The notes: generated by a model from the sequence alone, not told the origin. Shown: positions 6,080 through 23,382, numbered from the stretch's first letter. The stretch: 57,380 bases of DNA from a virus (IMGVR_UViG_3300005077_000022:1-57380), one strand, 5' to 3'. Translations and numbers: made by a program.

Positions 6080-6624
6080 CGTTCCTCCTGTGGCCCCGTA
6101 GGGCGCATTCGGCGGCGGATCACGCACAACACGGCGTCGAAGCACCCGTGCGGATCCGCTCGCAGTTGGTGGGTGGTGAACTCCAGCAGCATCCAGTCAT
6201 GCGTGGCGGCGTGCACCCGCTTCTCGCAGTCGCGGGCGAACCCGCTCCCCCGGACATGTCGTCCCCCGGCCCATGCTCCCCCGTGGACCTCCACGGCCGT
6301 GCGCGACGGGGTGTGGGCGAGGTCGAACCGGAACCGACGCTCCGTGCAGCACCGAACCTCACGTTCCAGATGAACTCCGGTGCCGTAAGCCTGCCACATC
6401 GTGAGGAATTCGGCGGCCGCGTCCGACCACAACCGCTTTTTTACCGGCGGGGGGGTGCGGGGTGTGGCCCCTCCCACGGGTCTGCCCGCCCGTGCACGAA
6501 TGCCCCGCATTGCCCCGGAAACAGGGGTAGGCGGGGCTTTTGGGGGTGGGGTGGGGGCTAGGTACCACCCGGTGCCTCGCGTGCGCCTACGGGCTTGTTT
6601 GGGGGTGGCACGGGGGGTGGTCAT
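6076..6624 (-). CDS. PD-(D/E)XK-type endonuclease domain protein (DUF559/Vsr-like), basic Pro-rich N-terminus
   Basis: C-terminal ERRFRFDLAHTPSRTAVEVHGGAWAGGRHVRGSGFARDCEKRVHAATHDWMLLEFT resembles the D...E(V)xG...K core. ATGA overlap with the helicase gene at 6621-6624. Confidence 0.55.
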   Translation of the reverse strand: MTTPRATPKQARRRTRGTGWYLAPTPPPKAPPTPVSGAMRGIRARAGRPVGGATPRTPPPVKKRLWSDAAAEFLTMWQAYGTGVHLEREVRCCTERRFRFDLAHTPSRTAVEVHGGAWAGGRHVRGSGFARDCEKRVHAATHDWMLLEFTTHQLRADPHGCFDAVLCVIRRRMRPTGPQEER

Positions 6625-7892
6625 CGGGTGCGCCAGTCGTCGTCGGGGTCCGGGTGGGGGTGGTGGGGGTCGGGGGTGAGGGAGTCGATTTCGCCGAACG
6701 TGAGGCGGTCGGGGTCGAACAGGAGGCGGAACTGGCCGGTGGCCCCGTCGCGGTTCTTGATCACGGCGGCGGTGGCGGCGAGGGGGTCGTCGCCGGTGGG
6801 GGCGCGGTGGAGGGTGACGACGATGTCGGCGTCGTGTTCGAGTTGACCGGACTCGCGCATGACGGCGAGGTCGTGGGGGTTGTGGGTGCGGCTGCCGCGT
6901 TCCGGGCGACCCACGGAGGAGATGACCACCACGGCCAGTTGGCGCTGGAGGGCGAGGGCCTTGAGGCCGGCGGACACCGCTTCGACTTCGGCCCGCTTGT
7001 CCCGTTGGGGGCGGGTGGCGGTGCGTTGGAGCAGCTGCAGATAGTCCACGAACACGGCGCGGGGTGGGGTGGTGCACAGGGCAAGGGCGGCGACGATCTC
7101 GTCCAGTGCGGTGGGGGCGTCCGTGAGCCACAGAGGGGCGTCGTAGAGCCGGTGCATGGTATCGGCGACCCGTTCCCACGGCACGTCGCGGCCGGTGCGG
7201 AGGGCGGACAGGGGCACCCCGGACTGCTGGGTGAGGAGGCGGCGGCCGATGGCCACGTTGCTCATTTCGCGGGACACGATGAGGGTGGGGATGCCGTGGA
7301 GGGCAGCGTGCATGGCCCACTGGGACGTGGCGAGGGACTTGCCCACGGCGGGCCGGGCGGCCACGTAGCACAGGTCACCGGGGCGCAGGCCCCCGGCGGT
7401 GAGGCGGTTGAACTCGGGCCACGGGGCGGGCACCACCCGGTGGGTGACGGTGGGGGCCTCTTCGGCGGCGCGCACCACGGCGGCCCCCACGTCGCGGAAC
7501 CGGGTGACGGGAAGGACGTGGCGGATGGGCGCGGAGCGGGTGGTGGCTGGGGTGGGAAGGCCCCGGCGTTCGAGGCGGCGGCGTTCGATCTCCTCGGCCA
7601 CGAGGCACTCGGCGTCGAGGAGGATGGACAGGGCGGTGGTGGCCGCCCGGCGGTCGTCCAAGCCGGGGGTGGCCCGCTGCAGGGCGGTGATGAGCTTGGG
7701 CAGGTACGCCAGCCCTTGGGTGTGGCGAATCTGGATGGCCGCGAGGGTGGCGTCCAGCGGGGCGTCCCCGTGGAGGAGGAGTTCGGTGAGCCACAGGACG
7801 GCTCCCACGTCCACGGGGCACGAGCGGTCGGGCCAGTGCGGGGGGTGGGCGAACAGTTCCAGCAGATCGGCGATGGGGTCGTTGGTGATCAT
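6621..7892 (-). CDS. dnaB: Replicative DNA helicase, DnaB-like
   Basis: Walker A ARPAVGKS, Walker B AVFVDYLQLL, RESGQLEHDADIVV, VIKNRDGATG. ATG 7892 (MITNDPIADLL) in ATGA overlap with the initiator gene. Confidence 0.85.
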   Translation of the reverse strand: MITNDPIADLLELFAHPPHWPDRSCPVDVGAVLWLTELLLHGDAPLDATLAAIQIRHTQGLAYLPKLITALQRATPGLDDRRAATTALSILLDAECLVAEEIERRRLERRGLPTPATTRSAPIRHVLPVTRFRDVGAAVVRAAEEAPTVTHRVVPAPWPEFNRLTAGGLRPGDLCYVAARPAVGKSLATSQWAMHAALHGIPTLIVSREMSNVAIGRRLLTQQSGVPLSALRTGRDVPWERVADTMHRLYDAPLWLTDAPTALDEIVAALALCTTPPRAVFVDYLQLLQRTATRPQRDKRAEVEAVSAGLKALALQRQLAVVVISSVGRPERGSRTHNPHDLAVMRESGQLEHDADIVVTLHRAPTGDDPLAATAAVIKNRDGATGQFRLLFDPDRLTFGEIDSLTPDPHHPHPDPDDDWRTR

Positions 7893-8932: not shown

Positions 8933-9329
8933 CTGTCCCCTCCCCGGCTCCGTCCGCCTCCTCCACATCCGCCACCGCCGGGGTGCGGGTCGTGCTGTCC
9001 ACCACGGGGTCCGTCTCGGTCCCGTCGTCCGGTTCCGTGCGCTCGTCTGGCTCCCCCTCCAGCCGCGCCAGTGTGTCCCAGACCGCCGTCAGCGGTTCGT
9101 GCCACTCCTTTCGCAGCCGCTGGGCGTCCTGCCGCAACAGGGCGGCGATGTACGCACTGATGCTCTGGTACCCACGGGCCACGGCCATGGCCCGCAGGGC
9201 TCGCCCGTTCCACGCCCCCGGCAGGGAGACGGACCCGTAGAACCGCCCGAACCGCCGGTGGCCCTTGAACTGCCGGCCGTCGTTCGGTGCCAACTCCTCG
9301 TCTATGCCCTCTAATGCTTGTATGGTCAT
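8922..9329 (-). CDS. Putative ribbon-helix-helix (CopG/Arc-like) regulator with acidic tail
   Basis: FKGHRRFGRFYGSVSLPGAWNGRALRAMAVARGYQSISAYIAALLRQD fits a beta-strand plus two-helix RHH layout. First minus-strand gene at the divergent control region. Start ATG 9329 or GTG 9353. Confidence 0.45.
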   Translation of the reverse strand: MTIQALEGIDEELAPNDGRQFKGHRRFGRFYGSVSLPGAWNGRALRAMAVARGYQSISAYIAALLRQDAQRLRKEWHEPLTAVWDTLARLEGEPDERTEPDDGTETDPVVDSTTRTPAVADVEEADGAGEGTDGE

Positions 9330-9378
9330 GAGCGTGTACTTACCACTGGGCACACACGGTGGTCAAGCAAGTTCCGCA

Positions 9379-9446: not shown

Positions 9447-10622
9447 ATGAACGACTCAGCACCGACCGTCCCCGTACCAGCGGGGCGGCCCCCCGCCGTG
9501 GAGTACGAGGTCCCCGTGGCGTTCAGCCGCGAGTGGATCGACCTCTGCAAGCGCACCATCTGCCCCGGCAGTACCGATGACGAGTTCCGGTATTTCCTCA
9601 CCGTCGCCAAGCGCACCGGGCTGGACCCGTTTGCCCGGCAGATCTACAGCGTGCCCCGCTGGAACTCCAAGACGCAGCGGGAGGAGCGGGCCATCCAAGT
9701 GTCCATCGACGGGTTCCGCTTGATCGCCGAACGCACCGGGCAGTACGAGGGACAGTGCGGCCCCCTGTGGTGCGGGCCGGACGGGGTGTGGAAGGAGGTG
9801 TGGGTGGGGCCGGGCCACCCCGTGGCGGCCAAGGTGGGGGTGTGGCGCACCGGGTTCCGCGAACCCCTGTGGGCGGTGGCGCGCTACGTCAGCTACGCGC
9901 AGAGGGACCGGCAGGGGAATCCCACTCAGTTCTGGAACCGGATGGACGACCTGATGATCGCCAAGGTCGCCGAAGCGTTGGCCCTGCGCCGGGCGTTCCC
10001 GCAGGACCTGAGCGGTCTGTACACGGACGACGAGATGGCACAGGCCACCACCGTGGACGCCGTGGTGGTGCCCCCCACGGAGGGGGGGATGGCGGACACG
10101 GTGCGGCAGGCCATGCAGCAGAAGCGGCCCGCCCTGCCCCCCGCTGGCAGTCCCCCGGCCCAGCCCGAGCCGCCGCCCATCACCCCACCCGTTGCACCGC
10201 CTCCTGCCGAGCAGCGGTGGATGGACCCCCCGGCCGGACTGGACACCCCCACCCCCACCCCCACCCCGCCCACTGCGTCCGATGACCCGGACGACGCGCC
10301 CCCGGAGGTGGAGTGCCCGGAGCACCCGGAGCGCATCATGCTGTGGTGGGAGGAGAAAGCGGACGGCACCCCGCTCAAGCCCCCCCGGTACGAGTGCCCG
10401 GAGGAGGGGTGCACCGTGGCCCTCTACCGCCCCACCACCGCGCAGTTGCGAATGCTGTTCAAGGTGATCTCCACCGCCAACCTCGATCCCAAGGACGTGC
10501 GGCGGTATATGCTCGATCACTTCGGCACTCTTCACACCAAGTTCCTCACCACCAACCGCCAGCGGCAGGGGTCGTTCGACCAACTGCTGGCCGAACTGCA
10601 GTCCACAGGAGAACCCGCATGA
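9447..10622 (+). CDS. recT: RecT-family single-strand annealing recombinase with Pro-rich linker and extra C-terminal Cys-containing domain
   Basis: [61 protein letters not shown] 9447 lies 8 nt after AGGAGG. The C-terminus has ECPEHP...YECPEEGC. Confidence 0.85.
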
Positions 10623-11566
10623 CCGCGACCGCCGTGGATACCGGCATCGACACCACCGACCGTCCCCGCTGGCTGGAGGCCCGCCGCTCCGGTCTCGGGG
10701 GCAGCGACGCCGCCGCCGTGATGGGGGTGGACCCGTACCGCACCCCGCTCGACGTGTACCTCGACAAGCTGGGGCAGGGGGAGGACCGGCCCGACACCAC
10801 CCGGATGCGCGCCGGGCGACTGCTGGAACCCGTGGTGGCCCAGTTGTGGGAGGAGGACACGGGGAAGACGTGCACGCCGTACACCAGACTGCTGCGGCAC
10901 CCGGACCACCCCGAATTGCTCGCCTCACTGGACCGGACGTTCATGGGGGCACACGGGCGCGGGGTGCTGGAGTTGAAGACCACCCAGCAGCGCAACCTCG
11001 ACGCGGCGTTGGCCAAGGGCCTCGTCGCCATCCCCACCCATTGGGTACAGGTGCAGCACTACTTGATGGTGACCGGGTGGGAGGAGGCCGAGTTGGCGTA
11101 CCTGTGCGACGGGCACGCCTTCTACCGCACCCCCGTGGAGCGGAACGACGCGTTCATCGCCACCATGTTTCAGCGGGAGGTGAACTTCTGGAACGGGCAC
11201 GTCCTGCCCCGGGTGCCCCCGCCCCCGCAGGTGGGGGAGGACGTGCTCAAGCTGTTCCCCCGCCACACCCCGGCCAAGGTGTTGCACGCCGACGACGCGC
11301 TGCTGGCGCAGATCGCCGAGTTGAAGGCCGTGCGGGAAGCCCGTGGCGAGGTGGCACACCGGGAGGAGGACCTGTCGCGGGCCGTGCAGGCGGCGATGCG
11401 GGATGCAGAGGCCGTGCTGGGGCCGGGTGGGGAAGTGCTGGTGACGTGGAAGGCCGCAGCGGACTCGGAGCGCATCGACGCCAAGCAACTCCGTGAGCAG
11501 TTCCCCGACGCCTACGCCGCGTGCTGCGTCCTGCGGCCCGGTGGGCGGCGGTTCCTCGTCAAGTAA
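10619..11566 (+). CDS. YqaJ-like (lambda Exo-type) recombination exonuclease
   Basis: [30 protein letters not shown]...GVLELKT (D..ExK), [17 protein letters not shown] overlap with recT. Confidence 0.85.
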
Positions 11567-12201: not shown

Positions 12202-13142
12202 GGCTTCTCCTCCTGTGGTTGGGGGGCGTGCACCTCGACCACATGGTCCACGCGCCCCGCGTGTGCGGTCCCCCGGACGTGCTGGGGGAACCAGAATGTG
12301 CCCACGGCGCGGCCCAACAGGGGCCGCTGGTCCGTGTACGTCTTGAAGTGGCCCCGCACGAGGTGCAGGGCCTGCCGGATACCGACGTGCTCCACTCGTC
12401 CCTCGCGCCGCAACGCCTCCCGCATGGGGTCGATGACCAGCGTCACCGTGCGGGTGATGGGCAACCGGCCCCGAGCGGCCCGGCGGCGTTGGAGCTTCGG
12501 GTCAACGTGCTGCACGTCCTGCCGCACGTTGCGGCAGTTGGCGAAGCACAGGCCCAGCAACGCCGGCTCCAACGTCAGGCCCCGGTAGGCATCCACCTGA
12601 CCGGAGTCCCTGACCGGCATTGGATAGATCAGCCCTTCCAACACCGGCGCAATGGCATTCTCGACCGACCCATCGTGACGCACACTCACCACCCACGTCA
12701 CATACAGGCCAAGCCGGTCGGTGTTGCCAACGGCCACGGCGCGGGCGAGATACAGCCACCGCACCGCATCGGGCGGCTGGACCAATTCCTCCAGTGACAC
12801 CCGCAACTGTTCGTCTGCCGCGTCGGTTTGGCGGTCCACGGCGGACACGAGCAGTCCGAACCGCCACCCGAACATGGGATGCTCGACCCGCCCCAGCTTG
12901 GCCGTCACCACCCAGCGGGGTTGCGTCCATTCCGCCCACATGGCCCGCCACGGGGGAGCGACGTTCGGGAAGTCCCCGGGATTGCCGAACTCGGCATCGG
13001 TGCCCGCCCAATAGTACTCCACCACGTTTTGCAGGCGGATCATGGTGACGTGGGGTTCTGAGAGTGCCGCGATGAACAGCGGTCCGCCGAACATATCGGG
13101 CGTGGCGGGAAGGTGCCGCTTCACGACTTCGTCGGCGAACAT
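12198..13142 (-). CDS. Hypothetical protein, 314 aa
   Basis: Long ORF with balanced composition (…HLVRGHFKTYTDQRPLLGRAVGTFWFPQHVRG…). RBS GGAAAGGAG upstream of ATG 13142. No family recognised. Confidence 0.6.
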   Translation of the reverse strand: MFADEVVKRHLPATPDMFGGPLFIAALSEPHVTMIRLQNVVEYYWAGTDAEFGNPGDFPNVAPPWRAMWAEWTQPRWVVTAKLGRVEHPMFGWRFGLLVSAVDRQTDAADEQLRVSLEELVQPPDAVRWLYLARAVAVGNTDRLGLYVTWVVSVRHDGSVENAIAPVLEGLIYPMPVRDSGQVDAYRGLTLEPALLGLCFANCRNVRQDVQHVDPKLQRRRAARGRLPITRTVTLVIDPMREALRREGRVEHVGIRQALHLVRGHFKTYTDQRPLLGRAVGTFWFPQHVRGTAHAGRVDHVVEVHAPQPQEEKP

Positions 13143-13143
13143 C

Positions 13144-13446
13144 TCACCACCGCTCCTTTCCCCGCCGCCATGCCAGCATCACCCCACGGGCGGTGCGTTC
13201 GGCGTTGGTGGCAACCAACAGGCCCCCGTCTGCGTTCAGCAGGGTGAACCGCCGGGGCCACGTTTCCCGGCGGGCCTCCACCGGGTGTTCCACGACGATC
13301 CGCAGCACGGCACCGGACGGGGCGCGGACCGCGAACGTGGGGGGCGCACCCGCCACGCTCACGTCCTCCACCCACCCCCGGACCAGTGCACGGACCAACC
13401 AGACCGGCACCGCGAAGTGCCGGCCGCACTGTTTGACCCAACCCAT
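13144..13446 (-). CDS. Hypothetical protein, 100 aa
   Basis: ATG 13446 preceded by AGGAGG and cassette A. Confidence 0.55.
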   Translation of the reverse strand: MGWVKQCGRHFAVPVWLVRALVRGWVEDVSVAGAPPTFAVRAPSGAVLRIVVEHPVEARRETWPRRFTLLNADGGLLVATNAERTARGVMLAWRRGKERW

Positions 13447-13515
13447 ATGACCTCCTCTGCCCGGACTTGGGACCGGGCGTGTGCATTAACGCGGCCCCGT
13501 GGCCGCGCCCCTCTG
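13447..13515 (-). promoter_or_regulatory. Intercistronic two-hairpin cassette, copy A
   Basis: Minus strand: TAG-CAGAGGGG-[CGCGGCC acgg GGCCGCG]-TTAATGCACAC-[GCCCGG TCCCAAGT CCGGGC]-AGAGGAGGTCAT-ATG. Confidence 0.8.
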
Positions 13516-13953
13516 CTACTCCTTCGTGGATGCCAGCGCGGTGGCAAGGGCCTCGATCATCCACTCCGGGTCGCCCTGCACGCTCCAGTGCAGGTACGGG
13601 TTCCGGGGGTCGTCGTCGTCATCGCGGGCAACAGCACATGAGGCGCACCCGGCCGTTGCCACCAACGGGCAGCGTTCGCACCCACTCTGCGGGTCGTAGA
13701 ACTTCTGGCACAGGGTGCACGAGTCGATACCGAAGGCGAACTCCACGGGCCGCTCGCCGTCCCGGTTCTTCTCCGCGATGTACCCGCCGTGCTGCACCTT
13801 GACCAGTCCGTGTCGGCGCAGCACGGTCGGCCTGAGCCCCTGCCACTTGCGGATGGTTGCTTTGAGCAGCGGTCGGACTCGGTCCCCGGCGCGCTCGGCG
13901 GTGATCCCGGCCGGTTCGGGATAGTACTTGGCCTTCCACGTTGCCATGCTCAT
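13516..13953 (-). CDS. Hypothetical Cys-rich protein, 145 aa
   Basis: ATG 13953 (MSMATWKAKYYPEPAG...). CTLCQKFYDPQSGCERCPLVATAGCASC. Preceded by cassette B. Confidence 0.6.
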   Translation of the reverse strand: MSMATWKAKYYPEPAGITAERAGDRVRPLLKATIRKWQGLRPTVLRRHGLVKVQHGGYIAEKNRDGERPVEFAFGIDSCTLCQKFYDPQSGCERCPLVATAGCASCAVARDDDDDPRNPYLHWSVQGDPEWMIEALATALASTKE

Positions 13954-14044
13954 GGTGTCCTCCTGTGACTGCGGTTGTGATTGCACGGGCTTGGGACCGT
14001 GCCGCCGCATTGCAGGCACGCCGTCGCGTGCCTCCCCTCTGCGA
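13954..14044 (-). promoter_or_regulatory. Intercistronic two-hairpin cassette, copy B
   Basis: Minus strand: TGA-TCGCAGAGGGGA-[GGCACGC gacg GCGTGCC]-TGCAATGCGGCG-[GCACGG TCCCAAGC CCGTGC]-AATCACAACCGCAGTCACAGGAGGACACC-ATG. Confidence 0.8.
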
Positions 14045-14584
14045 TCAGATGGGCAATGCCCCCACGGGGTGCGGTGGGGGTGTGGGCTTGGGTGCCGCCG
14101 GGCGCTTGGCCGGTGGGGCACGCCGCACGGGAGCCGGTGCGGACCGGCGGACCGGCGGCGGAACCTGCATGGCCCGATACTGCGCTTCGAACGTGTCGCA
14201 GATTCGCAACATCGGCGTGGCCCATTCGGCGGTGTTGGTCAGCAAGAACACCGCGTGGCCGCTGGCCCCGTGAGCACGGCACACCGCCGCGCACTCTCGG
14301 GCCAGTGCGATGCACGCCCCAACGGTGTCCACGCACACCTTGGCCGTGGCCAGCCATGCGGTGGCGGTGTTCCGTTCCGCCCCCCATCGGTCCGTGGCCG
14401 TCATCAGGGCCTGCCGTTTCGCCAACAGCCGGTCAGCACACCCCTGACACGCTGGGTCCGTGGCGGTCGGTGCCGGCGTGCTCGGTGCCACGGGGGCCGG
14501 GGGCACCGTGGGATAATGGACCGTGGGGGTGGCACACCCGGCCAGCCACACCCCCACGGCCCCTGCCAGTGCACAGCGGATCAT
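14045..14584 (-). CDS. Putative lipoprotein, 179 aa
   Basis: ATG 14584: MIRCALAGAVGVWLAGC (lipobox LAGC) followed by a Pro-rich linker. ATGA overlap with radC. RBS GGAAGGAGGG. Confidence 0.6.
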   Translation of the reverse strand: MIRCALAGAVGVWLAGCATPTVHYPTVPPAPVAPSTPAPTATDPACQGCADRLLAKRQALMTATDRWGAERNTATAWLATAKVCVDTVGACIALARECAAVCRAHGASGHAVFLLTNTAEWATPMLRICDTFEAQYRAMQVPPPVRRSAPAPVRRAPPAKRPAAPKPTPPPHPVGALPI

Positions 14585-15159
14585 AGGTACCCTCCTTCCG
14601 TGAAGCTGCAATACGGCGGGTGCTGCCCGATCACGAGGTGATCCACCACGCGGATGCCCAGCAGTTGGGCGCACTCCCGCAATCGCCGGGTGAGGATGAT
14701 GTCCTCCTGACTCGGCGTGGGGTCGCCGCTGGGGTGGTTGTGCACGAACATCACGGCGGCGGCGGCGGCCACCACCGCCGGGCGCAACACGTCTCGTGGC
14801 ACCACCACGCTGGCCGTCAACGACCCGTGGCTCACCCGCAGGGTGCGGGTGATGCGGTGCTTCTGGTTCAGCATCACGAGGTGGAACTCCTCGTGTTGGA
14901 GCGGCCGCATCCACGCGAACAGCGCGGCCACGTCCGCCGGGGCCTTCACCGCCGTGCGGGGCTCCCGCACGTAGTAGGCCACGGCGAACTCGCACACGGC
15001 GGCTATCGCCTCCTGCTCCCGTGTGCCCACTCCACAGGCCCGCCACTCGTCGGCGGGTACCTGCCACAGGTCCCCGAGGGCGTCCACCCACTCGGGCACC
15101 AGCAACGCGGGGCGGCGCACCGCTCGGCGCAGCCGCTCCAGATCTTCCGGCTTCAACAT
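14581..15159 (-). CDS. radC: RadC-like JAB/MPN+ domain protein
   Basis: FVHNHPSGDPTPSQEDIILTRRLRECAQLLGIRVVDHLVIG (JAMM motif). ATG 15159 preceded by AAGGAGGAACC. Confidence 0.85.
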   Translation of the reverse strand: MLKPEDLERLRRAVRRPALLVPEWVDALGDLWQVPADEWRACGVGTREQEAIAAVCEFAVAYYVREPRTAVKAPADVAALFAWMRPLQHEEFHLVMLNQKHRITRTLRVSHGSLTASVVVPRDVLRPAVVAAAAAVMFVHNHPSGDPTPSQEDIILTRRLRECAQLLGIRVVDHLVIGQHPPYCSFTEGGYL

Positions 15160-15256
15160 GGTTCCTCCTTGCTGGAGGCCTCGGCGGGGTGTAGAACGAC
15201 CGTACTCCTGTGACCCGCCGGACCTGACCTCCGGTGTGGTGTGTGTGCTGCGAAAC

Positions 15257-15287
15257 GGGCCGGGGTGCCGATCATGCACCCCGGCCC
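15257..15287 (-). terminator. 12-bp GC hairpin (GGGCCGGGGTGC-atgatcg-GCACCCCGGCCC) just after the stop of 15297..15539; lies in a degenerate version of the cassette (15160..15296)
   Basis: Read directly. This gap lacks the AATGC box and the TCCCAAG loop. A second hairpin CCGGA-ggtcagg-TCCGG follows. Confidence 0.4.
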
Positions 15288-15296
15288 GTGTCGCGT

Positions 15297-15539
15297 TCAG
15301 CGGACCTCGAAGCGCTCTGCCAAAATGCGAAGGAGATGGTCGTAGTCACCGGCCATCGCCTCCTTCTGCACTTCCGCCCACTGCTCTTCGGTCCACCCGT
15401 TCTTCTTGGCCGCTGCCCGGCACCGCCCCAGCAACGCGAACGCGTTGCCGTCGGTGCCAATCAGCTTGACCCGTGGGCGCTGCACGAACTTCTTCTTGCG
15501 CCGCTCGGAGGCCAGCACTATCGGGGCCTTCTTGGTCAT
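15297..15539 (-). CDS. Small basic protein, 80 aa
   Basis: ATG 15539: MTKKAPIVLASERRKKKFVQRPRVKLIGTDGNAFALLGRCRAAAKKNGWTEEQWAEVQKEAMAGDYDHLLRIL. Preceded by cassette C. Confidence 0.55.
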   Translation of the reverse strand: MTKKAPIVLASERRKKKFVQRPRVKLIGTDGNAFALLGRCRAAAKKNGWTEEQWAEVQKEAMAGDYDHLLRILAERFEVR

Positions 15540-15631
15540 CGTTTCCTCCTGTGACTGCGGTTGAAGTTGGCCGGGGCTTGGGACCCGGCCTGCCGCATTA
15601 AGCAGGGGCCGTTGCCCCTGCCCCCTCTGCG
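15540..15631 (-). promoter_or_regulatory. Intercistronic two-hairpin cassette, copy C
   Basis: Minus strand: TAG-CGCAGAGGGGG-[CAGGGGC aacg GCCCCTG]-CTTAATGCGGCAG-[GCCGGG TCCCAAGC CCCGGC]-CAACTTCAACCGCAGTCACAGGAGGAAACG-ATG. Confidence 0.8.
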
Positions 15632-16015
15632 CTACGCCCGCGCTGCACTGGTCACTTCGCGAATGACGTCCCTGTACACGGCCACGATCATCTGCGGGTC
15701 CATTCCGGCGGGACCGATGTGCTCTTGCGCGGCCCCGGAAAGCACCTTCAGCAGCCCGTCCGGGTCGATGTCCAGCAGCCCCATCAGCTTGAACCACTCC
15801 CGTCCGCGATACCCCGCGTGTGCCCCCACGGTGATCGCCGTGAGGGCACAGTTGAGCAGCTTCGCCTTCACGGCCGCGTCGTTATCCACCGCATCTTCCA
15901 GCCGGTGGATGATGATCGCAACGAGGTCCCTCGCTGCCATCATCAGGTCCACCGCCAGCTCCCCTTGTACCGGCTCGAAGGCCTGCTCCTGCTTCTGTTC
16001 CCGTTTCCTTGCCAT
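15632..16015 (-). CDS. Hypothetical protein, 127 aa; paralogue of 18039..18434
   Basis: ATG 16015. ...ITVGAHAGYRGREWFKLMGLLDIDPDGLLKVLSGAA..GPAGMDPQMIVAVYRDVI aligns with ...ITVAYHTGTSAQEWFHLIRLLGVRPDNLRNVLNGSV..APAGMDVEWVVRKYEEVL. Confidence 0.6.
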   Translation of the reverse strand: MARKREQKQEQAFEPVQGELAVDLMMAARDLVAIIIHRLEDAVDNDAAVKAKLLNCALTAITVGAHAGYRGREWFKLMGLLDIDPDGLLKVLSGAAQEHIGPAGMDPQMIVAVYRDVIREVTSAARA

Positions 16016-16104
16016 GACATCCTCCTGTGCTGCGGTGTGAGTTGCACGGGCTTGGGACCGTGCGGCCGCATTGCCGGGGGGCCTGTGCCCCCCGCCCCTC
16101 TGCG
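16016..16104 (-). promoter_or_regulatory. Intercistronic two-hairpin cassette, copy D
   Basis: Minus strand: TAA-CGCAGAGGGGC-[GGGGGGC acag GCCCCCC]-GGCAATGCGGCC-[GCACGG TCCCAAGC CCGTGC]-AACTCACACCGCAGCACAGGAGGATGTC-ATG. Confidence 0.8.
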
Positions 16105-16593
16105 TTACGCGGCCTTGTGGCCGATCTTCTTGGCGAGCGCCGCGAGCGCTGCGCCCTTCACCCGCGCCACGGGTGGCACGGCAACCTCCCGCACCTTCTT
16201 CTCGCGTGGCTTGCGCTCCTTCGGCTCCCGCACCTTCTTCTCGCGGGGCTTGCGCTCCTTCGGCGGCTCCGGTGGTGGCAAGCTCACCCTGCACCCCGTG
16301 CCCGGCACGTCCACCGTGTGCACGCCCCGGTTGAGGGTCCACCCCTCCATCGCGTCTCCACGCAGGGCCAGCCCGATGCCCTCGCTCGCCTTCTCGGCGC
16401 GGCGCTGGTACCGACGCGCCTTCGTCGCCAGCCCCTTGAGTGCAGCGCGCCTGAACGCGGCCGCTGCCTTCAAGATCACTGCCAGCGCGCCAACGACCTC
16501 CGTGGCGACGTGCGAGTCTGGCACCACTCGCCCGCACTGGTACAGAAACACCGCTCGTTCCGTTCCGCTCGCTTTCGCGGTCATCTTGGCCAT
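16105..16593 (-). CDS. Lys/Arg-rich protein with tandem KERKPREKKVREP repeat (possible nucleic-acid binding)
   Basis: 162-aa ORF. The C-terminal half is PPPEPPKERKPREKKVREPKERKPREKKVRE...AALAALAKKIGHKAA. Confidence 0.55.
   Translation of the reverse strand: MAKMTAKASGTERAVFLYQCGRVVPDSHVATEVVGALAVILKAAAAFRRAALKGLATKARRYQRRAEKASEGIGLALRGDAMEGWTLNRGVHTVDVPGTGCRVSLPPPEPPKERKPREKKVREPKERKPREKKVREVAVPPVARVKGAALAALAKKIGHKAA
16188..16265. repeat. Two tandem 39-bp units (2 mismatches) inside 16105..16593
   Basis: Read directly: cccgcaccttcttctcgcg(t/g)ggcttgcgctccttcggc(t/g). Confidence 0.85.
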
Positions 16594-16682
16594 GATTGGC
16601 CTCCTTCTCCTGTCCGGTCGTGTGTGTGTGCTGACCGTGAGCAGGAGGAAGGGGGCACGGCCCCCTTCCCTCTACCAGCGTG
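16594..16682 (-). promoter_or_regulatory. Degenerate cassette (hairpin 1 only)
   Basis: Minus strand: TGA-cacgctggtAGAGGGAA-[GGGGGC cgt GCCCCC]-TTCC...ACAGGAGAAGGAGGCCAATC-ATG. No TCCCAAG hairpin. Confidence 0.5.
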
Positions 16683-16868
16683 TCAGTCCTCCTCTCGCTC
16701 CCCGTGGGTCCCGTGGGTGTCGCACCACCACACCGCCACCCACACCGGCCCCGTGTCCGGGGGGCCAGCATCCAGTTCGTCCACGATCACGCAGTGACAA
16801 CCCTGCACATGGCAGCACGGGCAGGGTTCTGCGTGGTCCGTCACGCAGCGGCGGCGACCCGCTTCCAT
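16683..16868 (-). CDS. Small Cys/His-rich protein, 61 aa
   Basis: MEAGRRRCVTDHAEPCPCCHVQGCHCVIVDE...WWCDTHGTH. ATG 16868 overlaps the end of the DUF932 gene by 28 nt. Confidence 0.4.
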   Translation of the reverse strand: MEAGRRRCVTDHAEPCPCCHVQGCHCVIVDELDAGPPDTGPVWVAVWWCDTHGTHGEREED

Positions 16869-17905
16869 TCGCCCTCGGGCAGGGTGAGCACCTGCCCCCC
16901 TCCCCGCTCCATCTCCACGGAGCGGTCGTAATCCTCAGTGTCCTGTGCGGCCCGCGTCACCGCGTTCACCAGCCCCCACCGGGACAACGCGCCCCCGGTG
17001 ACGAGGTGCCGGAGGACGTTCACCCGCTCCCCGTCCGTGAGGGACAGGACCTTGCCCACCGCCTCCACGGCCTTCACCGGGTCGCCCGTGATGGGTTCCC
17101 CGGCAGCGCTCCGCATCCGCTCCAGCACGGGCTGGAACGTGGCCTCGCTCAACGCCCCCCGCACCACGTCCCTGACCTTGAGGAGGAAGGCGTGGTCGTC
17201 CGCCTTCAACGCCTCGTCGGTGAGCATCTTGTAGACCTCGCCCTCATCCAGCCGGGTCTGCGCCCCGACGTGCTGCTGCCGCAACTTTCGGTCGGGCAGC
17301 ACCAGTCCGTTGAGGCACACCAACCTCAGCACCAGCGGGGTCACCGCCAGTGCCCCGAGGCCGATCTCGGAGTTCGTGATCTCCAGCCCGGCCTCCACGA
17401 CGTCCCCCTTGGCCACCTCCCCCTGCACCCGGGGGGTGGTCACCCGCACGTACAGCCGCCGTTCCGTCACGGCCAAGGACCGCACTTGCAGATCCGGCAT
17501 CTCCCCCAGCACCGGGAGGATGATGCCCAGCACGTCCGCGTGGTCGATCCTCTGGTACCGGTCGCTGAGGAACGCCCGCATCCGGGTCCCGTGTGCCCGG
17601 ATCATCCGTCGCTCCGGGGCGGCCGTGAACCAGTGGTTCACGTTGTCCGCGAGCAGGGCGGGCGCTTCCGCCCTCATCCGCTCGTAGTACGGGGCCGGGA
17701 TCTTCAACCGCGCCGCCACCTGTCCGTGGGCGGTGTCCGTGGCGGTGAGGTCGTGGGTGGTGCCGATCCGGTCGAGGTCCACCCGAAAGTTCCCGTCCGC
17801 ATCCATCCGCAGGGACCGGGTGTCCACCACCATGTCCCGCTTCTGTTCGGCGTCAGCCAGCACGCGCTCGGCCAACGCCTCCACCGATTCGATCTGTTGC
17901 AACAT
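16841..17905 (-). CDS. DUF932-family protein (phage/plasmid-associated)
   Basis: ATG 17905 (MLQQIESVEALAERV...). LKIPAPYYERMRAEAPALLADNVNHWF and RAFLSDRYQRIDHADVL match the family pattern as I recall it. Confidence 0.75.
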   Translation of the reverse strand: MLQQIESVEALAERVLADAEQKRDMVVDTRSLRMDADGNFRVDLDRIGTTHDLTATDTAHGQVAARLKIPAPYYERMRAEAPALLADNVNHWFTAAPERRMIRAHGTRMRAFLSDRYQRIDHADVLGIILPVLGEMPDLQVRSLAVTERRLYVRVTTPRVQGEVAKGDVVEAGLEITNSEIGLGALAVTPLVLRLVCLNGLVLPDRKLRQQHVGAQTRLDEGEVYKMLTDEALKADDHAFLLKVRDVVRGALSEATFQPVLERMRSAAGEPITGDPVKAVEAVGKVLSLTDGERVNVLRHLVTGGALSRWGLVNAVTRAAQDTEDYDRSVEMERGGGQVLTLPEGEWKRVAAAA

Positions 17906-18038
17906 GACGTCCTCCTGCCCGGCGCGGGGCCGGGCGTGTGTGTGCGCCGCACGTCGGGTGCGGCTCCGAACGGGTCTGCACGGGCTTGGGACCGTGCCGC
18001 CGCATTGCCGGGGGCCTCGCGGCCCCCGTCCCTCTGCG
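17906..18038 (-). promoter_or_regulatory. Intercistronic two-hairpin cassette, copy E (with about 60-nt insertion carrying two extra hairpins)
   Basis: Minus strand: TGA-CGCAGAGGGAC-[GGGGGCC gcga GGCCCCC]-GGCAATGCGGCG-[GCACGG TCCCAAGC CCGTGC]-...[GCCGCAC ccgac GTGCGGC]...[CCCGGC cccgc GCCGGG]-CAGGAGGACGTC-ATG. Confidence 0.8.
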
Positions 18039-18434
18039 TCACTTGGCATCCGGCTTCGCCAACACCTCCTCGTATTTGCGGACCACCCACTCCACGTCCA
18101 TCCCCGCCGGTGCCACCCCGGCGGCCACGGACCCGTTCAGCACGTTCCGGAGGTTGTCGGGGCGCACCCCCAGCAACCGGATGAGGTGGAACCACTCCTG
18201 CGCCGACGTGCCGGTGTGATAGGCGACGGTGATGCACATCAGCGCCGTCCCTAAAAACAGACTCTTGATCTCCGCGTTGAACCCCTTTTCGGGGCCGAGA
18301 GCGATCACTACGGTCACCAGATCCCGGCACACCTCGGTGAATGACAGGGCCAGTGCCTGCATCGTCACCCCGTGTTCCCGCCACGCCCCACCGACCAACT
18401 CCTCCACTGCGTCCAACTGCGCTTTCTTGGCCAT
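18039..18434 (-). CDS. Hypothetical protein, 131 aa; paralogue of 15632..16015
   Basis: ATG 18434 (MAKKAQLDAVEELVGG...). See the alignment under 15632..16015. Confidence 0.6.
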   Translation of the reverse strand: MAKKAQLDAVEELVGGAWREHGVTMQALALSFTEVCRDLVTVVIALGPEKGFNAEIKSLFLGTALMCITVAYHTGTSAQEWFHLIRLLGVRPDNLRNVLNGSVAAGVAPAGMDVEWVVRKYEEVLAKPDAK

Positions 18435-18526
18435 GATCTCCTCCTGTGCTGCGGTGTGATGTGGCCGGGGCTTGGGACCCGGCCTGCCGCATTGCCGGGG
18501 GGCACAGGCCCCCCGCCCCTCTGCGA
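18435..18526 (-). promoter_or_regulatory. Intercistronic two-hairpin cassette, copy F
   Basis: Minus strand: TAG-TCGCAGAGGGGC-[GGGGGGC ctgt GCCCCCC]-GGCAATGCGGCAG-[GCCGGG TCCCAAGC CCCGGC]-CACATCACACCGCAGCACAGGAGGAGATC-ATG. Confidence 0.8.
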
Positions 18527-18979
18527 CTACATCTGCAACGCTTCGATGTGCTCGGCGGTGGTGGCTTCCGCTTTGGCCCGGCGTTCCACCCCCTGCGCCT
18601 TGTACACCGCGTCCTGTTCGATCCCCTTCGTCACTCCCCGGAGGAACGCGGATCGCCCCTCGCTGGCGACGTTGGTGCGCAATCCGATGTGCCGCTCCAC
18701 TGCCTCCACCAGCGACACGTCCTCGAAGCACTCGTCTCCGTCCCCCGGCCGGATGCGCCGCTTGAGGAACGCCCCGTGCACCCGCTCCAGCACCGCCAGC
18801 CGCACGCGCCACTCGTGTGCGTTCTTGGCGTTTATGTGGCCCAGCTTCACGTTCATCGCCACCCAAACGAGGGCGTGCGTTTCGGGCCGCATCACCGTCT
18901 TGCCGGGATGGTCGGGGTCGTCCATCCAACACACGGTCTGCCACTCTGCGATCTGCTCCAGACTCCACGTTAAGGCCAT
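18527..18979 (-). CDS. Hypothetical protein, 150 aa
   Basis: ORF MALTWSLEQIAEWQTVCWMDDPDHPGKTVMRPETHALVWVAMNVKLGHINAKNAHEW... preceded by cassette G. No family recognised. Confidence 0.6.
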   Translation of the reverse strand: MALTWSLEQIAEWQTVCWMDDPDHPGKTVMRPETHALVWVAMNVKLGHINAKNAHEWRVRLAVLERVHGAFLKRRIRPGDGDECFEDVSLVEAVERHIGLRTNVASEGRSAFLRGVTKGIEQDAVYKAQGVERRAKAEATTAEHIEALQM

Positions 18980-19058
18980 CGTGTCCTCCTGTGTTGTGGC
19001 CGGGACTTGGGACCCGGCTGTGCATTAACGGGGGCCATGCAGCCCCCGTCCCTCTGCG
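18980..19058 (-). promoter_or_regulatory. Intercistronic two-hairpin cassette, copy G
   Basis: Minus strand: TAG-CGCAGAGGGAC-[GGGGGC tgcatg GCCCCC]-GTTAATGCACA-[GCCGGG TCCCAAGT CCCGGC]-CACAACACAGGAGGACACG-ATG. Confidence 0.8.
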
Positions 19059-19595
19059 CTACGCCACCGCGAGGTCGCTGACCCGGCCACCGACCAGCCG
19101 GGCCACGGCCTTCAGCATGGCCTCGGAGTGGGAAGTCCCACACCGATAGTCCACCACCTCCACCGCCCCCCGCCGCGTCACGAACGCGAACAACCGCTCC
19201 CCGCATAGTACGGCGCGGGGGGAGTCGGGGTGGCAGTCCGTCCGGTCCAGCGTGGCGGTCAGGGTCAGGAGCCTCGGGGCTTCGTCGGTGCAGTCAGGCT
19301 CGCCGCCGAACGTCACGGTGAGCCGGTACGGCATCATCGCCTGAGTGCCCGCGAAGCGGGTCAGCACCCGCACCACCGCCTTCCGCTGCGAGGCGGTGAG
19401 GCCATCCGGGGCAGCACCCATCGCAGCCCGCACTGACGCCGCCACGTTCAGCGGGTCCGGTTCCGGGCTGGCTTCGTTCAACATCACCCGCCACCGCAGG
19501 TGTTCAGCGGGCTGGTCCACCGGGCACGGGGCACCGACCAGCGTGCAGCACGGATCGTCCGCCGTGCATCCACACGAACAGCAAACATGGGCCAT
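19059..19595 (-). CDS. Hypothetical protein, 178 aa, Cys-rich N-terminus; first gene of the cassette module
   Basis: ATG 19595: MAHVCCSCGCTADDPCCTLVGAPCPVDQ... preceded by cassette H. Confidence 0.6.
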   Translation of the reverse strand: MAHVCCSCGCTADDPCCTLVGAPCPVDQPAEHLRWRVMLNEASPEPDPLNVAASVRAAMGAAPDGLTASQRKAVVRVLTRFAGTQAMMPYRLTVTFGGEPDCTDEAPRLLTLTATLDRTDCHPDSPRAVLCGERLFAFVTRRGAVEVVDYRCGTSHSEAMLKAVARLVGGRVSDLAVA

Positions 19596-19675
19596 CGTCT
19601 CCTCCTGTGTTGTGGCCGGGACTTGGGACCCGGCGTGTGCATTAGAGGCGCCGTTGCGCCTCCCCTCTGCAACGG
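19596..19675 (-). promoter_or_regulatory. Two-hairpin cassette, copy H (leader copy, no gene upstream)
   Basis: Minus strand: TTGCAGAGGGGA-[GGCGC aacg GCGCC]-TCTAATGCACAC-[GCCGGG TCCCAAGT CCCGGC]-CACAACACAGGAGGAGACG-ATG. Confidence 0.8.
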
Positions 19676-20131
19676 ACCAGCAACCTGCGTCGCCAGTCCG
19701 TGAGGGGCCATGTCGCGTGCCCCTCTCGTGCGCGTTGATTCCGATTGGGCCTTTCGTCCGTAGCCAGACGGGCCGTTGTGCGTGTGTCCCCACCCTCCAA
19801 CCGTGCATGGGTGCCCTTGCGGCTTCCCTCCGGGGCCATGCACCGCTGTCACCACCACACCACGCACCACCGCCCGCCAGCCAAGCCGCCTGCGCGCCCT
19901 GCGCGCCCCCGTACCCCCCACCACCGTCTCGGCCTACCGGGTCACATCCAACCGTCCTCTCCGCGTCTCCCCCACCGTCACCGCTCACCGGGGCTTATCC
20001 CCCGGTGGCTTCCCCCTGACGGCTCGCCTTGGCCTTCTCACAGGGGGCTATGGCCCGCGCTCCTCGCCTCCACCGGCCCGGCTAAGGGGCAGTGGGGGGT
20101 GTGGCGAGTGGCGGACACGCGCCGCCCGGGG

Positions 20132-20185
20132 TCAGTAGACCCACCCCCGGTCGGCGGCCACGTACTTTGGGCTCTGTTTTGGCAT
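20132..20185 (-). CDS. 17-codon mini-ORF (MPKQSPKYVAADRGWVY) with strong RBS in the otherwise non-coding region
   Basis: Hand translation. GGAGAGGAAG lies immediately upstream of ATG 20185. Could be a leader peptide or chance. Confidence 0.15.
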   Translation of the reverse strand: MPKQSPKYVAADRGWVY

Positions 20186-20300
20186 CTTCCTCTCCTGCCT
20201 GATGGTAACGCACCGCCGACGTTGGTACAAGGACCCGGCGCAACAAAGTTCCGCAAGGAAAACAGGGAGTTAGGCCATCCCTAGAACTCTGGGACGCACG

Positions 20301-20480
20301 GGGGCTACGGGCGGGGGCCACGGGCCACAGGCAGGGCCACGGGGGGCCACGGGGGGCCACAGGGGAGCCACAGGCTTGGGCCACAGGGGGGCCACGGGGC
20401 CACGGGGCGTGGCCGGGAGGGACGTGCCTAGCCACGGGCGACCGCGCCGCGTGGTGGCCCTGTATGGGGCTACAGGGGGC
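20301..20480. repeat. Array of about 10 direct GCCAC(G/A)GG repeats at 7-13 bp (mostly 10-11 bp) spacing, plus variants and 2 inverted copies
   Basis: Read directly: GCCAC begins at 20317, 20324, 20336, 20346, 20356, 20367, 20380, 20391, 20399 and 20431. GCTAC variants near 20304 and 20469. Inverted GTGGC near 20409 and 20454. Confidence 0.75.
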
Positions 20481-23382
20481 CGAGTGGCATCCCCCGCGAC
20501 CGGGGAGTGCTGGGGGGCGGGGTGGGGGTGATGGTCGGGGTGATGGTCGGGGTGATCCCGCCGGGGGTGGGGGTGTCCGGGGGGGTCAGGGGGGGGGTCA
20601 GGGTGGGGGTCAGGGCGGGGGTGTCGGTGGGCGTCACCGTGGGGGTGTCGGTGGCCACAGGCGTCGGCGTGTGCGGGTACCCCTGTACCTCCTCGTCCAG
20701 CGGCGGGGTGGGGGTCACAGTCGGGGTCTCGGTCTGGGTGATGGTCGGCGACGGCGACGGTGTGTGGGGGTACCCCTGCGCTTCATCGTCCAGCGGAGCC
20801 GTGGGGGTGGCCGTGGGGGTCTCGGTCGGGGTGATGGTCGGGGTCTGTGTCGGCGAGGCCGTGGGGGTGTGGGGGTACCCGTCCACCTCATCATCCAACG
20901 GCGGGGTGGGAGTCACCGTCGGGGTCTCCGTTGCCCCCCCGGTTGGCGTCAGCGTCGGGGTCACGGTCGGGGTGATAGTTGGCGTCGGCGTCAACGTCGG
21001 CGTCAACGTGGGCGAGGCAGTCGGGGTGTGGGGGTAAGCATCCACCTCATCATCCAACGGCGGCGTCGGCGTTGCCGTGGCACCAGTAGTCGGGGTGATG
21101 GTCGGGGTGAACGTCAGCGTAGGAGTGGCCGTGGGCGTGTGGGTGCGCGTTGGACGCGGTGTGTCCGTGGGGGCAGGCGTCTGCAGTTGGTAGACCACCA
21201 CGATGCCCGGCCCCGGATACAGGGTGGAGTTGCGCGGCCGCACCGACAACTGGTTCAGCCCCGTGGGTGCCCCGCCGTCCACGAACAGGCGCAGGCTCGT
21301 GTCCCCCGTGCGGCTCACGGTGGCCGGGCTGGTCAACGGCACCGAGAAGTCCCCGGCGGCGGTGATGCCAGACAGGGGCGTGGAGAACGCGGAACTGGAG
21401 GCCGTGGTGGTCCAGTCGTCCGCGCATTCGAATCGTGCCCCCCAATCGTACCACTCCCCGGTGAACGCCCGGGCGTCCGCCGACGTGGCCGCGCCCCACG
21501 CCGCGAACGTCACCGTGGCGCTGGTCACCGTGGCGGCGTCCGGGATCGCCGAGGTGTCCCACTGCACCCCGCCGATGGCCACCTGATAGGACCCGCCTGT
21601 TCCGTTGCGGGCCACGGTGAGCAACGTGGCGTCCGTCTCGGAGGCGCAGGTGGCGGGCGGATACGTGGCGGACGTGGCGCTGGTCAACTGGACGTCCTGC
21701 TCGTTGTACCCACTGCACACCGCGTAGCCGGGGGTGGTGCAGGCGGTGTCTACCGCGCACGCCCGGTACTGCACCCCTCCCGTGCCCCCATCCGTGTCCT
21801 CCGGGGCACACCCCGTGCGGTCCGCCGCGCACACCCCCAGCCGGCACGCCAGCGTGTAGGTCACCGCCGTGGGCGTTGGCGTCGGGGTGATGGTCGGGGT
21901 GAGCGTCGGGGTGAACGTGGCCGTGGCCGTTGGCGTGTGCGGGTACCCGTCCACCTCATCATCCAGCGGAGCCGTTGGGGTCGGCGACGGCAGGCCCGTG
22001 GGGGTAGCCGTCAGGGTGGGCGTGATGGTCGGCGTCAGGGTCGGCGTCGGCGTGGTCGTCACCGTGGGGGTGTGGGGGTACCCGTCTACCTCATCGTCCA
22101 GTGGCGGCGTCGGCGTGTGAGTGGCCGTGGCCGTTGGGGTGATGGTCGCCGTCAACGTCGGCGTGTGCGTGCGCGTGGGGGTCAGGGTGGGGGTGAGCGT
22201 CGGCGTGTGCGTGCGCGTCGGCGTCAAGGTCGGCGTCAAGGTCGGCGTGTTCGTGGGGGTCCGCGTCGGCGTGTGAGGGTACCCGTCCACCTCATCATCC
22301 AACGGCGGCGTCGGCGTTGCCGTGGGCATCCCCGTGGGGGTGACCGTCGCCGTGTTGGTGGGCGTCAGCGTCGGCGTGTGGGTGGCCGTCCGAGTTGGGG
22401 TCGAAGTCGGGGTGGCCGTCCCCGTGCGCGTGGGCGTGTGCGTGGGGGTGTGGGTGGGAGTGAGCGTGGGCGTGTTGGTGGCCGTCACCGTGGGGGTGTG
22501 GGGGTACCCGTCCACCTCGTCGTCCAGCGGCGGCGTGGGGGTCGAGGTGGCCGTGTTGGTCGGGGTGATTGTCGCCGTCCGCGTGGGAGTAGACGTCGGC
22601 GTGCGCGTCGGCGTGTGGGTGGCCGTCCGCGTCGGCGTGCGCGTGGCCGTGTGGGTGGGGGTTCGGGTCGGCGTCAGGGTCGGCGTCGGGGTCGCAACAG
22701 CCTCGTGGCACACCTCAAGCTGTGGCGGGTTCGTTTGCCCGTACCCTTCCACGGTCAGGTAGTTGTCGCTCGTGGGGGTTGTGCTGTCGCACGTCCACCG
22801 GAATCCCGTGGACCCCTTGCGGTCGATGGCGTCGATCAACGCCAGCGAAAAGGCATGGTACGCCCCGGAGGAAATCGCCGTGATGGCCGTCCCAGCGTGC
22901 GCGTTGCCGCCCGCCACCTCCGTGTAGTCTCCCGTGGTGAGCGGCGGTGTCCATGTGTAGTAACTGCCAAGCACGGAGGCCGTGCCAGCCTTCGCGGCGA
23001 TGTACAGGGACAGGGTGGCACTCGTGATGGTGGCATCGTCAGGCAGGGACGAGGTGTCAAACCGGAACACCCCGTTGTAATTCGTGTAGGACGGTGCCGC
23101 CTGCTTCATAATGCGGACGTAGCTGGTGGTGGACACGGCCGTGGCCGTGGGGATGGGCCACGAGGCGCTGGTGCCGTAGACGTGGCCGTCCTCTCCGTCT
23201 GTCGGCACGGCGAACGTGACGCACACGGTCGGCACGGGCGTCACCGTGGGGGTGTGGGTCGGGGTGTGGGGGTACCCAGCGACCTCGTCACTCAGTGGCG
23301 GCGTGGGGGTGGCGGTCTGTGCCCTCGCGGTTGCCGCCAGTGCGAGAATCAGCCAGACCGCGCAACGGGCGGCACGAGCAAT
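20470..23382 (-). CDS. Large secreted repeat protein: signal peptide, two paralogous beta-rich domains, (TPT)n linkers, nine [14 protein letters not shown] motifs
   Basis: ORF track starts at GTG 23244. The frame is open upstream and encodes (I/M)[41 protein letters not shown], so the start is proposed at ATT 23382 or CTG 23397. The domains share [20 protein letters not shown] / [19 protein letters not shown]. Confidence 0.65.

Follow-up and report, generated by a model that had tools for sequence, protein, structure and literature searches.

Eight probable type-P5 twister ribozymes between the genes of a phage module

In this work we analyse the viral sequence IMGVR_UViG_3300005077_000022:1-57380, a stretch of 57,380 nucleotides (nt) called below the window, and within it a module of minus-strand genes in whose gaps eight copies of a short two-hairpin element are located. 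The window has a GC content of 68% and is a siphovirus-like tailed-phage genome with a Mu-type portal. No close relative was found among GenBank phages, where BLAST of the module gave a single 119-nt match of chance level, and the nearest cultured relatives of the capsid protein (from Arthrobacter, Roseobacter and Pseudomonas phages) are 40-45% identical. The genes of the module, together with the elements and other recognised genes, are collected in Table 1. Several of the module proteins are without a family match, and an exact look-up of the DUF932 protein returned no record; genes such as DUF932 and RadC are, in mobile elements, typically of the accessory or anti-restriction-neighbourhood kind. 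A previous reading, made from the sequence alone (below, the sequence-only reading), had placed the eight elements on the minus strand in gaps of this module, and inspection of 13300-19900 confirmed all of them. We conclude that the eight cassettes are very probably type-P5 twister self-cleaving ribozymes, lying within one leftward polycistronic phage transcript.

Table 1 Location of the elements, the module genes and other recognised genes in the window (aa, amino acids; T2, second pseudoknot, see text)
Feature	Position	Strand	Remarks
tw1	19617..19671	-	55.0 bits, E 1.4e-9; predicted cut 19644 (U)/19643 (A); T2 AC:GU
tw2	19001..19058	-	54.4 bits; predicted cut 19027/19026 (U^A); T2 AC:GU
tw3	18466..18525	-	51.4 bits; predicted cut 18494/18493 (C^A); T2 GC:GC
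tw4	17980..18038	-	56.3 bits; predicted cut 18007/18006 (C^A); T2 GC:GC
tw5	16046..16104	-	51.7 bits; predicted cut 16073/16072 (C^A); T2 GC:GC
tw6	15572..15631	-	61.3 bits; predicted cut 15600/15599 (U^A); T2 GC:GC
tw7	13985..14043	-	53.0 bits; predicted cut 14012/14011 (C^A); T2 GC:GC
tw8	13461..13517	-	61.8 bits; predicted cut 13488/13487 (U^A); T2 AC:GU
Decayed twister	16594..16682	-	aligned to four intact copies
Non-twister gap before the RadC gene	15160..15296	-	sequence reading; no Rfam ribozyme match
Gene module with predicted ribozyme cuts	13516..19595	-	genes listed below in order
178-aa gene	19595..19059	-	
150-aa gene		-	
131-aa gene	18434..18039	-	
DUF932 gene	17905..16841	-	
61-aa gene		-	
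162-aa gene		-	
127-aa gene	16015..15632	-	paralogue of the 131-aa gene
phrog_1933	15539..15297	-	
RadC/JAB	15159..14581	-	
Lipoprotein-like gene	14584..14045	-	
145-aa gene		-	
DnaB-type helicase	6621-7892		
RecT	9447-10622		
YqaJ exonuclease	10313-11566		
Tape measure protein	29816-33964		
Major head protein	39017-39982		
Mu F-like protein	42549-43379		
Mu-type portal (Portal_Mu)	45714-48605		
Terminase	52919-54085		

The whole window was scanned against Rfam 15 with gathering thresholds, and all matches obtained, eight in number and all on the minus strand, belong to RF02684 (type-P5 twister, Twister-P5). Their scores range from 51.4 to 61.8 bits (E 1.7e-10 to 8.3e-8), which for each of the eight copies is 14-24 bits above the gathering score of 37.6 bits. 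Every alignment spans model positions 1-58 of 58, none (0/8) being truncated, and the upper-case consensus positions are all matched with the exception of N-1 (U or C) and of a compensated change in the T2 pseudoknot. At relaxed thresholds no ribozyme was detected beyond the eight Twister-P5 copies, either in the whole window (E<=0.5) or in 12500-21000 (E<=5); the hammerhead and the other self-cleaving classes of Rfam gave no match in the whole window at E<=0.5, and no tRNAs were found in it. The 12-mer GGTCCCAAGYCC has eight exact occurrences in the window, on the minus strand only and confined to the element sites, and with two mismatches allowed it is at chance level (23 found vs 21.4 expected), in agreement with the claim that the motif is present nowhere else. 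GCAGAGGGR was seen at the same eight minus-strand sites and, in addition, in one unrelated plus-strand match.

The sequence-only reading did not recognise the element as a described family, and it named a hit to a known element as what would overturn its view; the match of all eight copies to RF02684 is such a hit. As judged from sequence, the eight copies are additional members of a known family, and an arrangement of this type has already been reported. They share with the type-P5 twister the order of elements, the conserved bases and the covariation pattern, with no defining difference. Roth et al. 2014, cited in PMC6765202 and PMC5408937, described the twister class, of which type P5 is one of the three published permutations (PMC5408937, PMC10085705).

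On the coding strand the parts of each cassette follow in the order that had been proposed, namely stop codon, 0-1 nt (or a 2-nt overlap), GCAGAGGG, hairpin 1, NAATGC, hairpin 2, spacer, AGGAGG and ATG. The RF02684 alignments and a segment parse assign a role to each of them. GCAGAGGG supplies one strand of helix P2, in which CGCA is paired with UGCG, as well as the strand used by pseudoknot T1. Hairpin 1 is P1, which is closed by its loop in the type-P5 permutation, the ends of the molecule being open after P4. N^AATGC contains the cleavage site, with the scissile bond 5' of the conserved A, and the second strand of P2. Hairpin 2 is P4, and its loop UCCCAAGY (L4) is engaged in both pseudoknots, T1 joining GGG of GAGGG with CCC of L4 and T2 joining the two bases after AAUGC(G) with GY of L4. 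Pairing of the L4 CCC with GGG, with an adjacent A-A, has been described for twister (PMC5408937). GAGGG and UCCCAA are invariant in 8/8 copies, so that T1 is seen here as complementarity without covariation.

Helices P2, P1 and P4 were all recovered by unconstrained minimum free energy folding of the 58-63-nt cores of the eight copies. P1 pairs 2-7 are canonical in every copy, with 2-3 pair types each, and so are P4 pairs 3-6 (8/8), where pair 3 is G-C in four copies and C-G in the other four, and pair 4 is C-G in five and A-U in three. Among 106 other instances the same helix positions are canonical in 92-106 (most in at least 101), with 4-6 pair types. The folds and the covariation of P1 and P4 uphold the interpretation of covarying stems with a fixed loop as a structured RNA. 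For hairpin 1 the preservation of pairing was likewise upheld, but not its stated dimensions (5-8 base pairs, bp, and a loop of 4-6 nt), as we obtained 7-10 predicted pairs and a 4-nt loop.

Pseudoknot T2 occurs in two states, UGC-AC with AAGU in tw1, tw2 and tw8, and UGCG-GC with AAGC in tw3-tw7. In 108 distinct other instances AC is combined with U in 50 (53 with one-base-offset cases), GC or GGC with C in 44 and GC with U, as a wobble, in 10, and the AC+C mismatch is not encountered (0). The two subfamilies distinguished earlier are, as read from these combinations, a compensatory T2 change from GC:GC to AC:GU; they are real as T2 states but do not form a clean split, with tw6 combining TTAATGC with GGC/AAGC/ACCGCAG.

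Only minor variants set the eight copies apart from the type-P5 twister: C at N-1 in four of them, a P2 reduced to 3 bp in the ACA copies, and the lack of an evident P5 stem. Position N-1 is C in tw3, tw4, tw5 and tw7 and U in the other four, and it is C in 10/108 other instances; it is described as non-conserved and as hardly touching the active site (PMC5408937). As for P5, no consistent pairing of the flanks was seen by eye, the 5' flank being the end of the upstream open reading frame (ORF) and the Rfam model having no P5 pairs. In tw3, tw5, tw6 and tw7 a downstream CCGCA box is complementary to the post-cleavage 5' end UGCGG, enclosing P4. Elsewhere such a helix is predicted in 15/113 instances, where permutations give 6.7 +/- 1.9; the enrichment is modest, so that the helix cannot count as general and may be a minor possibility.

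Two further gaps had been described as holding degenerate versions of the element. For 16594-16682 the alignment bears this out: the gap retains GTAGAGGG and a P1-like hairpin, is devoid of NAATGCGGC (the NAAUGCGGC cleavage-site/P2 box) and of most of L4, and gives no Rfam match (E<=5 regionally, E<=0.5 in the whole window). The gap 15160-15296 is on the contrary unrelated, showing neither an Rfam ribozyme match nor a likeness to the element in any test; what it holds is a long GC hairpin with TTT behind it, and a CGCAGCACAC stretch.

Between 11500 and 21000 no sigma-70-like promoter was detected, nor any intrinsic terminator on the minus strand; a single long transcript would agree with this but is not thereby proved. 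According to the known chemistry of the family, such an RNA would cut its own chain at N^AAUGC, after N and before the first A. The upstream product would have the stable P1 hairpin as its end, about 30 nt past the stop codon, and carry a 2',3'-cyclic phosphate there, and the downstream product would begin with 5'-OH-AAUGC and the P4 hairpin, ahead of the AGGAGG/ATG of the next gene. Eight cuts would convert a leftward transcript of 6.2 kb into seven discrete internal RNAs, with predicted lengths of 617, 533, 487, 473 and 524 nt for the five single-gene species, and of 1934 nt (DUF932, 61 aa, 162 aa) and 1588 nt (phrog_1933, RadC, lipoprotein) for those carrying three genes. The predicted tails past each stop are 28-33 nt long and terminated by P1, and the predicted 5' leaders measure 47-60 nt, except for 101 nt ahead of DUF932. 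At the 5' side of the module lies tw1, a leader copy ahead of the first gene (19595..19059) with P4 reaching to about 19614, and its cleavage would strip the primary 5' end from the mRNA of that gene. Each RNA would in this way receive uniform, structured and exonuclease-resistant ends, and the stability and translation of each cistron would be uncoupled from its neighbours, the ribozymes acting as natural insulators for accessory or early genes.

An intercistronic processing site, one of the functions suggested by the sequence-only reading, agrees with the predicted activity of a twister. Its reading of hairpin 1 as a 3' stabiliser or terminator is retained in the first part, P1 being the predicted 3'-terminal hairpin of the upstream RNA, and abandoned in the second: P1 is followed by N-AAUGC and not by the U tract of an intrinsic terminator, and terminators are ruled out on this ground. 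The cassettes do punctuate the module, as had been stated, but not between all genes, about 12 genes being distributed over 7 segments.

The leader between tw4 and DUF932 (17906-17979) is about 40 nt longer than the others and contains an additional pair of GC hairpins, GCCGCAC..GUGCGGC and GCCCGGCC..GCCGGGC, of which the latter abuts the Shine-Dalgarno sequence (SD) and may control translation of DUF932.

The same organisation recurs in other viral contigs. An exact-pattern scan of IMG/VR gave at least 80 stretches, many of them multi-copy, and in 16 of these loci Rfam confirmed 79 Twister-P5 matches, on a single strand in each locus. The richest one (L033) has 12 copies in 9.2 kb; 11 were found in L054, seven each in L002, L060 and L051, six in L042, and five each in L064 and L066. 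The layout was scored as an ORF of at least 50 codons ending between -15 and +8 nt of the ribozyme start, and then an SD, a start codon and an ORF. It was present in 82/100 other viral instances with enough flank, vs 4.8% at random same-strand positions; the stop codon of this layout lies at -2 to +6 nt, the most frequent position of the upstream ORF end was a 2-nt overlap with the ribozyme, and the SD/start had its median about 27 nt past P4. Homologues of DUF932, RadC and phrog_1933 (23-53% identity) are flanked by twisters in L003, L013, L037, L047, L016, L079 and L061. In the literature consulted, in which the twister class was covered through reviews, no published arrays as long as these 5-12-copy ones were found, and array length is not claimed as new. 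BLAST of one ribozyme against phages returned weak partial matches only, the best of which, in Streptomyces phage PumpkinSpice, is antisense to the local genes and by Rfam is not a ribozyme. A 29-nt subfamily-specific pattern had 0 matches in IMG/VR and one in an Acidobacteriota metagenome-assembled genome (Terracidiphilus sp.), where the common part is the ribozyme core only.

Ribozymes of other kinds were observed next to the same gene families. In L007 a type II hammerhead (249-312, plus strand, 48.3 bits) directly follows a RadC homologue, and a Twister-P5 is also present at 1764-1819. In L083 (IMGVR_UViG_3300018080_000439) a sub-threshold type III hammerhead lies at 9286-9343 on the plus strand (35.4 bits vs 48.5, E 6.5e-5), with the core CCGAUGAG instead of CUGAUGAG; the gene after a DUF932 homologue has its SD and ATG immediately behind this hammerhead, and ahead of the hammerhead are a terminator-like hairpin and a TTGACA/TATAAT-like stretch. 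The next gap of L083 (10076-10170, plus strand) holds a twister-like element, parsed by eye, in type-P1 order, scoring 21 bits against Twister-P5 (E 0.46), with L4 UGGCAAGU instead of UCCCAAGU and with GCAGAGCC instead of GCAGAGGG. It possibly displays a compensatory change of T1, which is normally invariant, from CCC:GGG to GGC:GCC. From the L007 and L083 cases the ribozyme class is interchangeable and not obligatory, in agreement with the literature.

Several points weigh against the proposed processing of the module by active twisters. Self-cleavage is deduced here from the complete match to a biochemically characterised family, and a single transcript is an assumption, its promoter not having been located. 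Three or four of the four copies with C at N-1 close P1 with G-G or A-G beside the active site. The closest DUF932 relative, that of L083 (46% identity), is without a ribozyme at the Rfam gathering level, so that ribozymes are dispensable for this gene family. Finally, a benefit in stability or insulation has not been established for any bacterial or phage twister (PMC6765202).

What maintains active ribozymes at these positions may also be something other than processing as such. It is possible, though we hold this tentatively, that selection acts on the modularity of the cassettes, whose conserved boundaries of about 60 nt would offer homology for gene duplication, exchange and insertion. 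The module itself contains a suggestive case, as the paralogous genes at 18039-18434 and 15632-16015 (38% identity over 99 aa, E 1e-21) have each their own twister on both sides, as if a cassette bounded by ribozymes had been duplicated. In distant contigs, too, members of the module's gene families are flanked by twisters, the class of ribozyme can be exchanged (hammerhead II in L007, hammerhead III-like in L083), and one copy of the array, at 16594-16682, has decayed. Against this, no recombination junction has been demonstrated, and the exact stretches common to the copies are short, P1 and P4 being different. Modularity would in any case complement RNA processing and not replace it.

The tight spacing of stop codon and ribozyme admits another possibility, which we regard as unlikely, that cleavage is conditional on translation. 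In the window the two are 0-1 nt apart or overlap by 2 nt (tw8, for example, is overlapped by 2 nt of the upstream stop codon TAG), and in most other instances the distance is -2 to +1 nt; a terminating ribosome could melt P2, T1 and the base of P1, upstream translation then tuning the ratio of processed to unprocessed RNA. Twisters are, however, among the fastest self-cleavers and cutting is expected to be co-transcriptional; no alternative upstream fold was identified, and genome compaction alone can account for the spacing.

Considerably less probable is a fate of the excised RNAs that follows from the geometry of their predicted ends alone. The 5' end (5'-OH-AAUGC, T2 dinucleotide and P4/L4) would be the 3' half of one ribozyme, and the 3' end (CGCA, GAGGG, P1 and the 2',3'-cyclic phosphate) the 5' half of the next. 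With P2 and T1 interfaces that do not differ between copies, one RNA could re-form a nicked twister in cis from its own ends, by which the cistrons might be closed non-covalently, or ligated into circular, exonuclease-resistant mRNAs, a 5'-OH beside a cyclic phosphate being the substrate of RtcB-type ligases. No RNA ligase was found in the window, and circular products of hammerhead clusters were looked for and not seen (PMC3088659). Should this be true, such circular mRNAs would parallel in nature the engineered circularisation of RNA by twisters.

A hairpin 2 whose loop is bound by a phage or host protein, for antitermination, as a translational operator or for recognition by an RNase, as the sequence-only reading had supposed, is highly improbable. 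The invariant loop over covarying stems and the small basic proteins encoded in the module are in its favour, but every conserved base (the loop, GCAGAGGG and AAUGC) fits the twister core with both pseudoknots, where the CCC of L4 is used in T1 and its GY in T2 with the GC or AC after AAUGC. Between the loop base Y and a base 15-20 nt upstream there is moreover a covariation that T2 demands and that display to a protein would not need, and the element recurs in phages that are not related, beside genes that are not related either. For nut/boxB or operator hairpins in particular, the involvement of the 8-nt loop in T1 and T2 and the number of copies, eight, were sufficient to rule them out. Integron attC-like sites in single-stranded DNA, considered for their gene-repeat-gene layout, were dropped because the twister model covers every conserved base, no attC-specific test being behind this decision. 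That the copies are inactive relics, serving now only as hairpins, 3' stabilisers or pause sites, is hardly to be believed: a clearly decayed copy at 16594-16682 and non-canonical closing pairs of P1 in three or four copies speak for it, but the conserved core is intact in 8/8 with the wide score margin given above, the T2 change is compensated, and the true relic, unlike the eight copies, escapes detection by the model.

The predicted processing by twisters may be compared with known systems. In bacteriophage T7, RNase III sites between genes cut a long transcript into mRNAs with 3'-terminal hairpins; there a host enzyme recognising double-stranded RNA is needed, whereas here the RNA is predicted to cut itself, leaving 5'-OH and 2',3'-cyclic phosphate. 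In phage lambda, boxB follows boxA once in each early operon, and its hairpin, a short stem closed by a pentaloop, is the target of the N protein. A small hairpin with a conserved loop in an early phage transcript is common to boxB and to the element of the window, but the latter has a loop of 8 nt that forms pairs elsewhere in the RNA, is present eight times and gives no sign of depending on an N-like protein. RiboJ is a synthetic ribozyme insulator. In pRAP self-cleaving ribozymes, twister included, are placed between cistrons for polycistronic expression (PMC9872166). An own RNA with a defined 5' end for each ORF is the aim in these and the predicted outcome in our array; they differ in being engineered, the array of the window being natural.

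The nearest published counterpart comes from prophages, in which Perreault et al. 2011 (PMC3088659) described multiple hammerheads around single genes or short blocks, including ardA. Those hammerheads cleave in vitro and in vivo, and conversion of long phage transcripts into gene-length mRNAs was proposed (PMC3088659). The likeness lies in same-strand ribozymes bracketing accessory phage genes, including anti-restriction-type ones, the differences in an unrelated fold and in two or three published ribozymes as against eight here. Twister was itself recognised as a ribozyme through gene neighbourhoods in common with hammerheads (PMC6765202), and self-cleaving ribozymes cluster together for a reason that is unknown (PMC6765202). 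The strongest gene association of twister and hammerhead is with Mu-like phage genes (PMC10085705), and we count the Portal_Mu and Mu F-like genes of the window as an agreeing context.

Why phages set self-cleaving ribozymes between accessory genes is a question of the field (PMC6765202, PMC10085705), for which the window offers a clean test case, bringing together in one genome eight intact copies and a decayed one, both T2 states and paralogous cassettes. For annotation, gaps of this kind should be labelled as twister ribozymes and not as terminators or unknown repeats.

Other features of the genome were noted in passing. The lipoprotein-like gene overlaps the RadC stop codon (ATGA) and opens with MIRCALAGAVGVWLAGC, which is a signal peptide of lipoproteins and includes a lipobox; it has no family match, and its product may be a membrane protein or an accessory protein of the superinfection-exclusion type.

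Upstream of the module, a stretch of about 790 nt (19676-20469) is without codon bias. On the plus strand at 20291-20406 it contains eight exact copies of GGCCACRGG in 91 nt (20316-20406), as well as the near-copies GGCTACGGG and AGCCACAGG. This motif occurs 18 times in the whole window vs 5.9 expected, and the array is situated about 650 nt upstream of tw1. Iteron- or operator-like in character, the array could serve as an origin, as a set of operators or in controlling the promoter of the module.

The 7-deazaguanine (preQ0) pathway is used by some phages for modification of their DNA against restriction, and minus-strand genes for GTP cyclohydrolase I (48772-49641), QueD/PTPS (50224-50601) and QueC (50598-51203) are present in the window.

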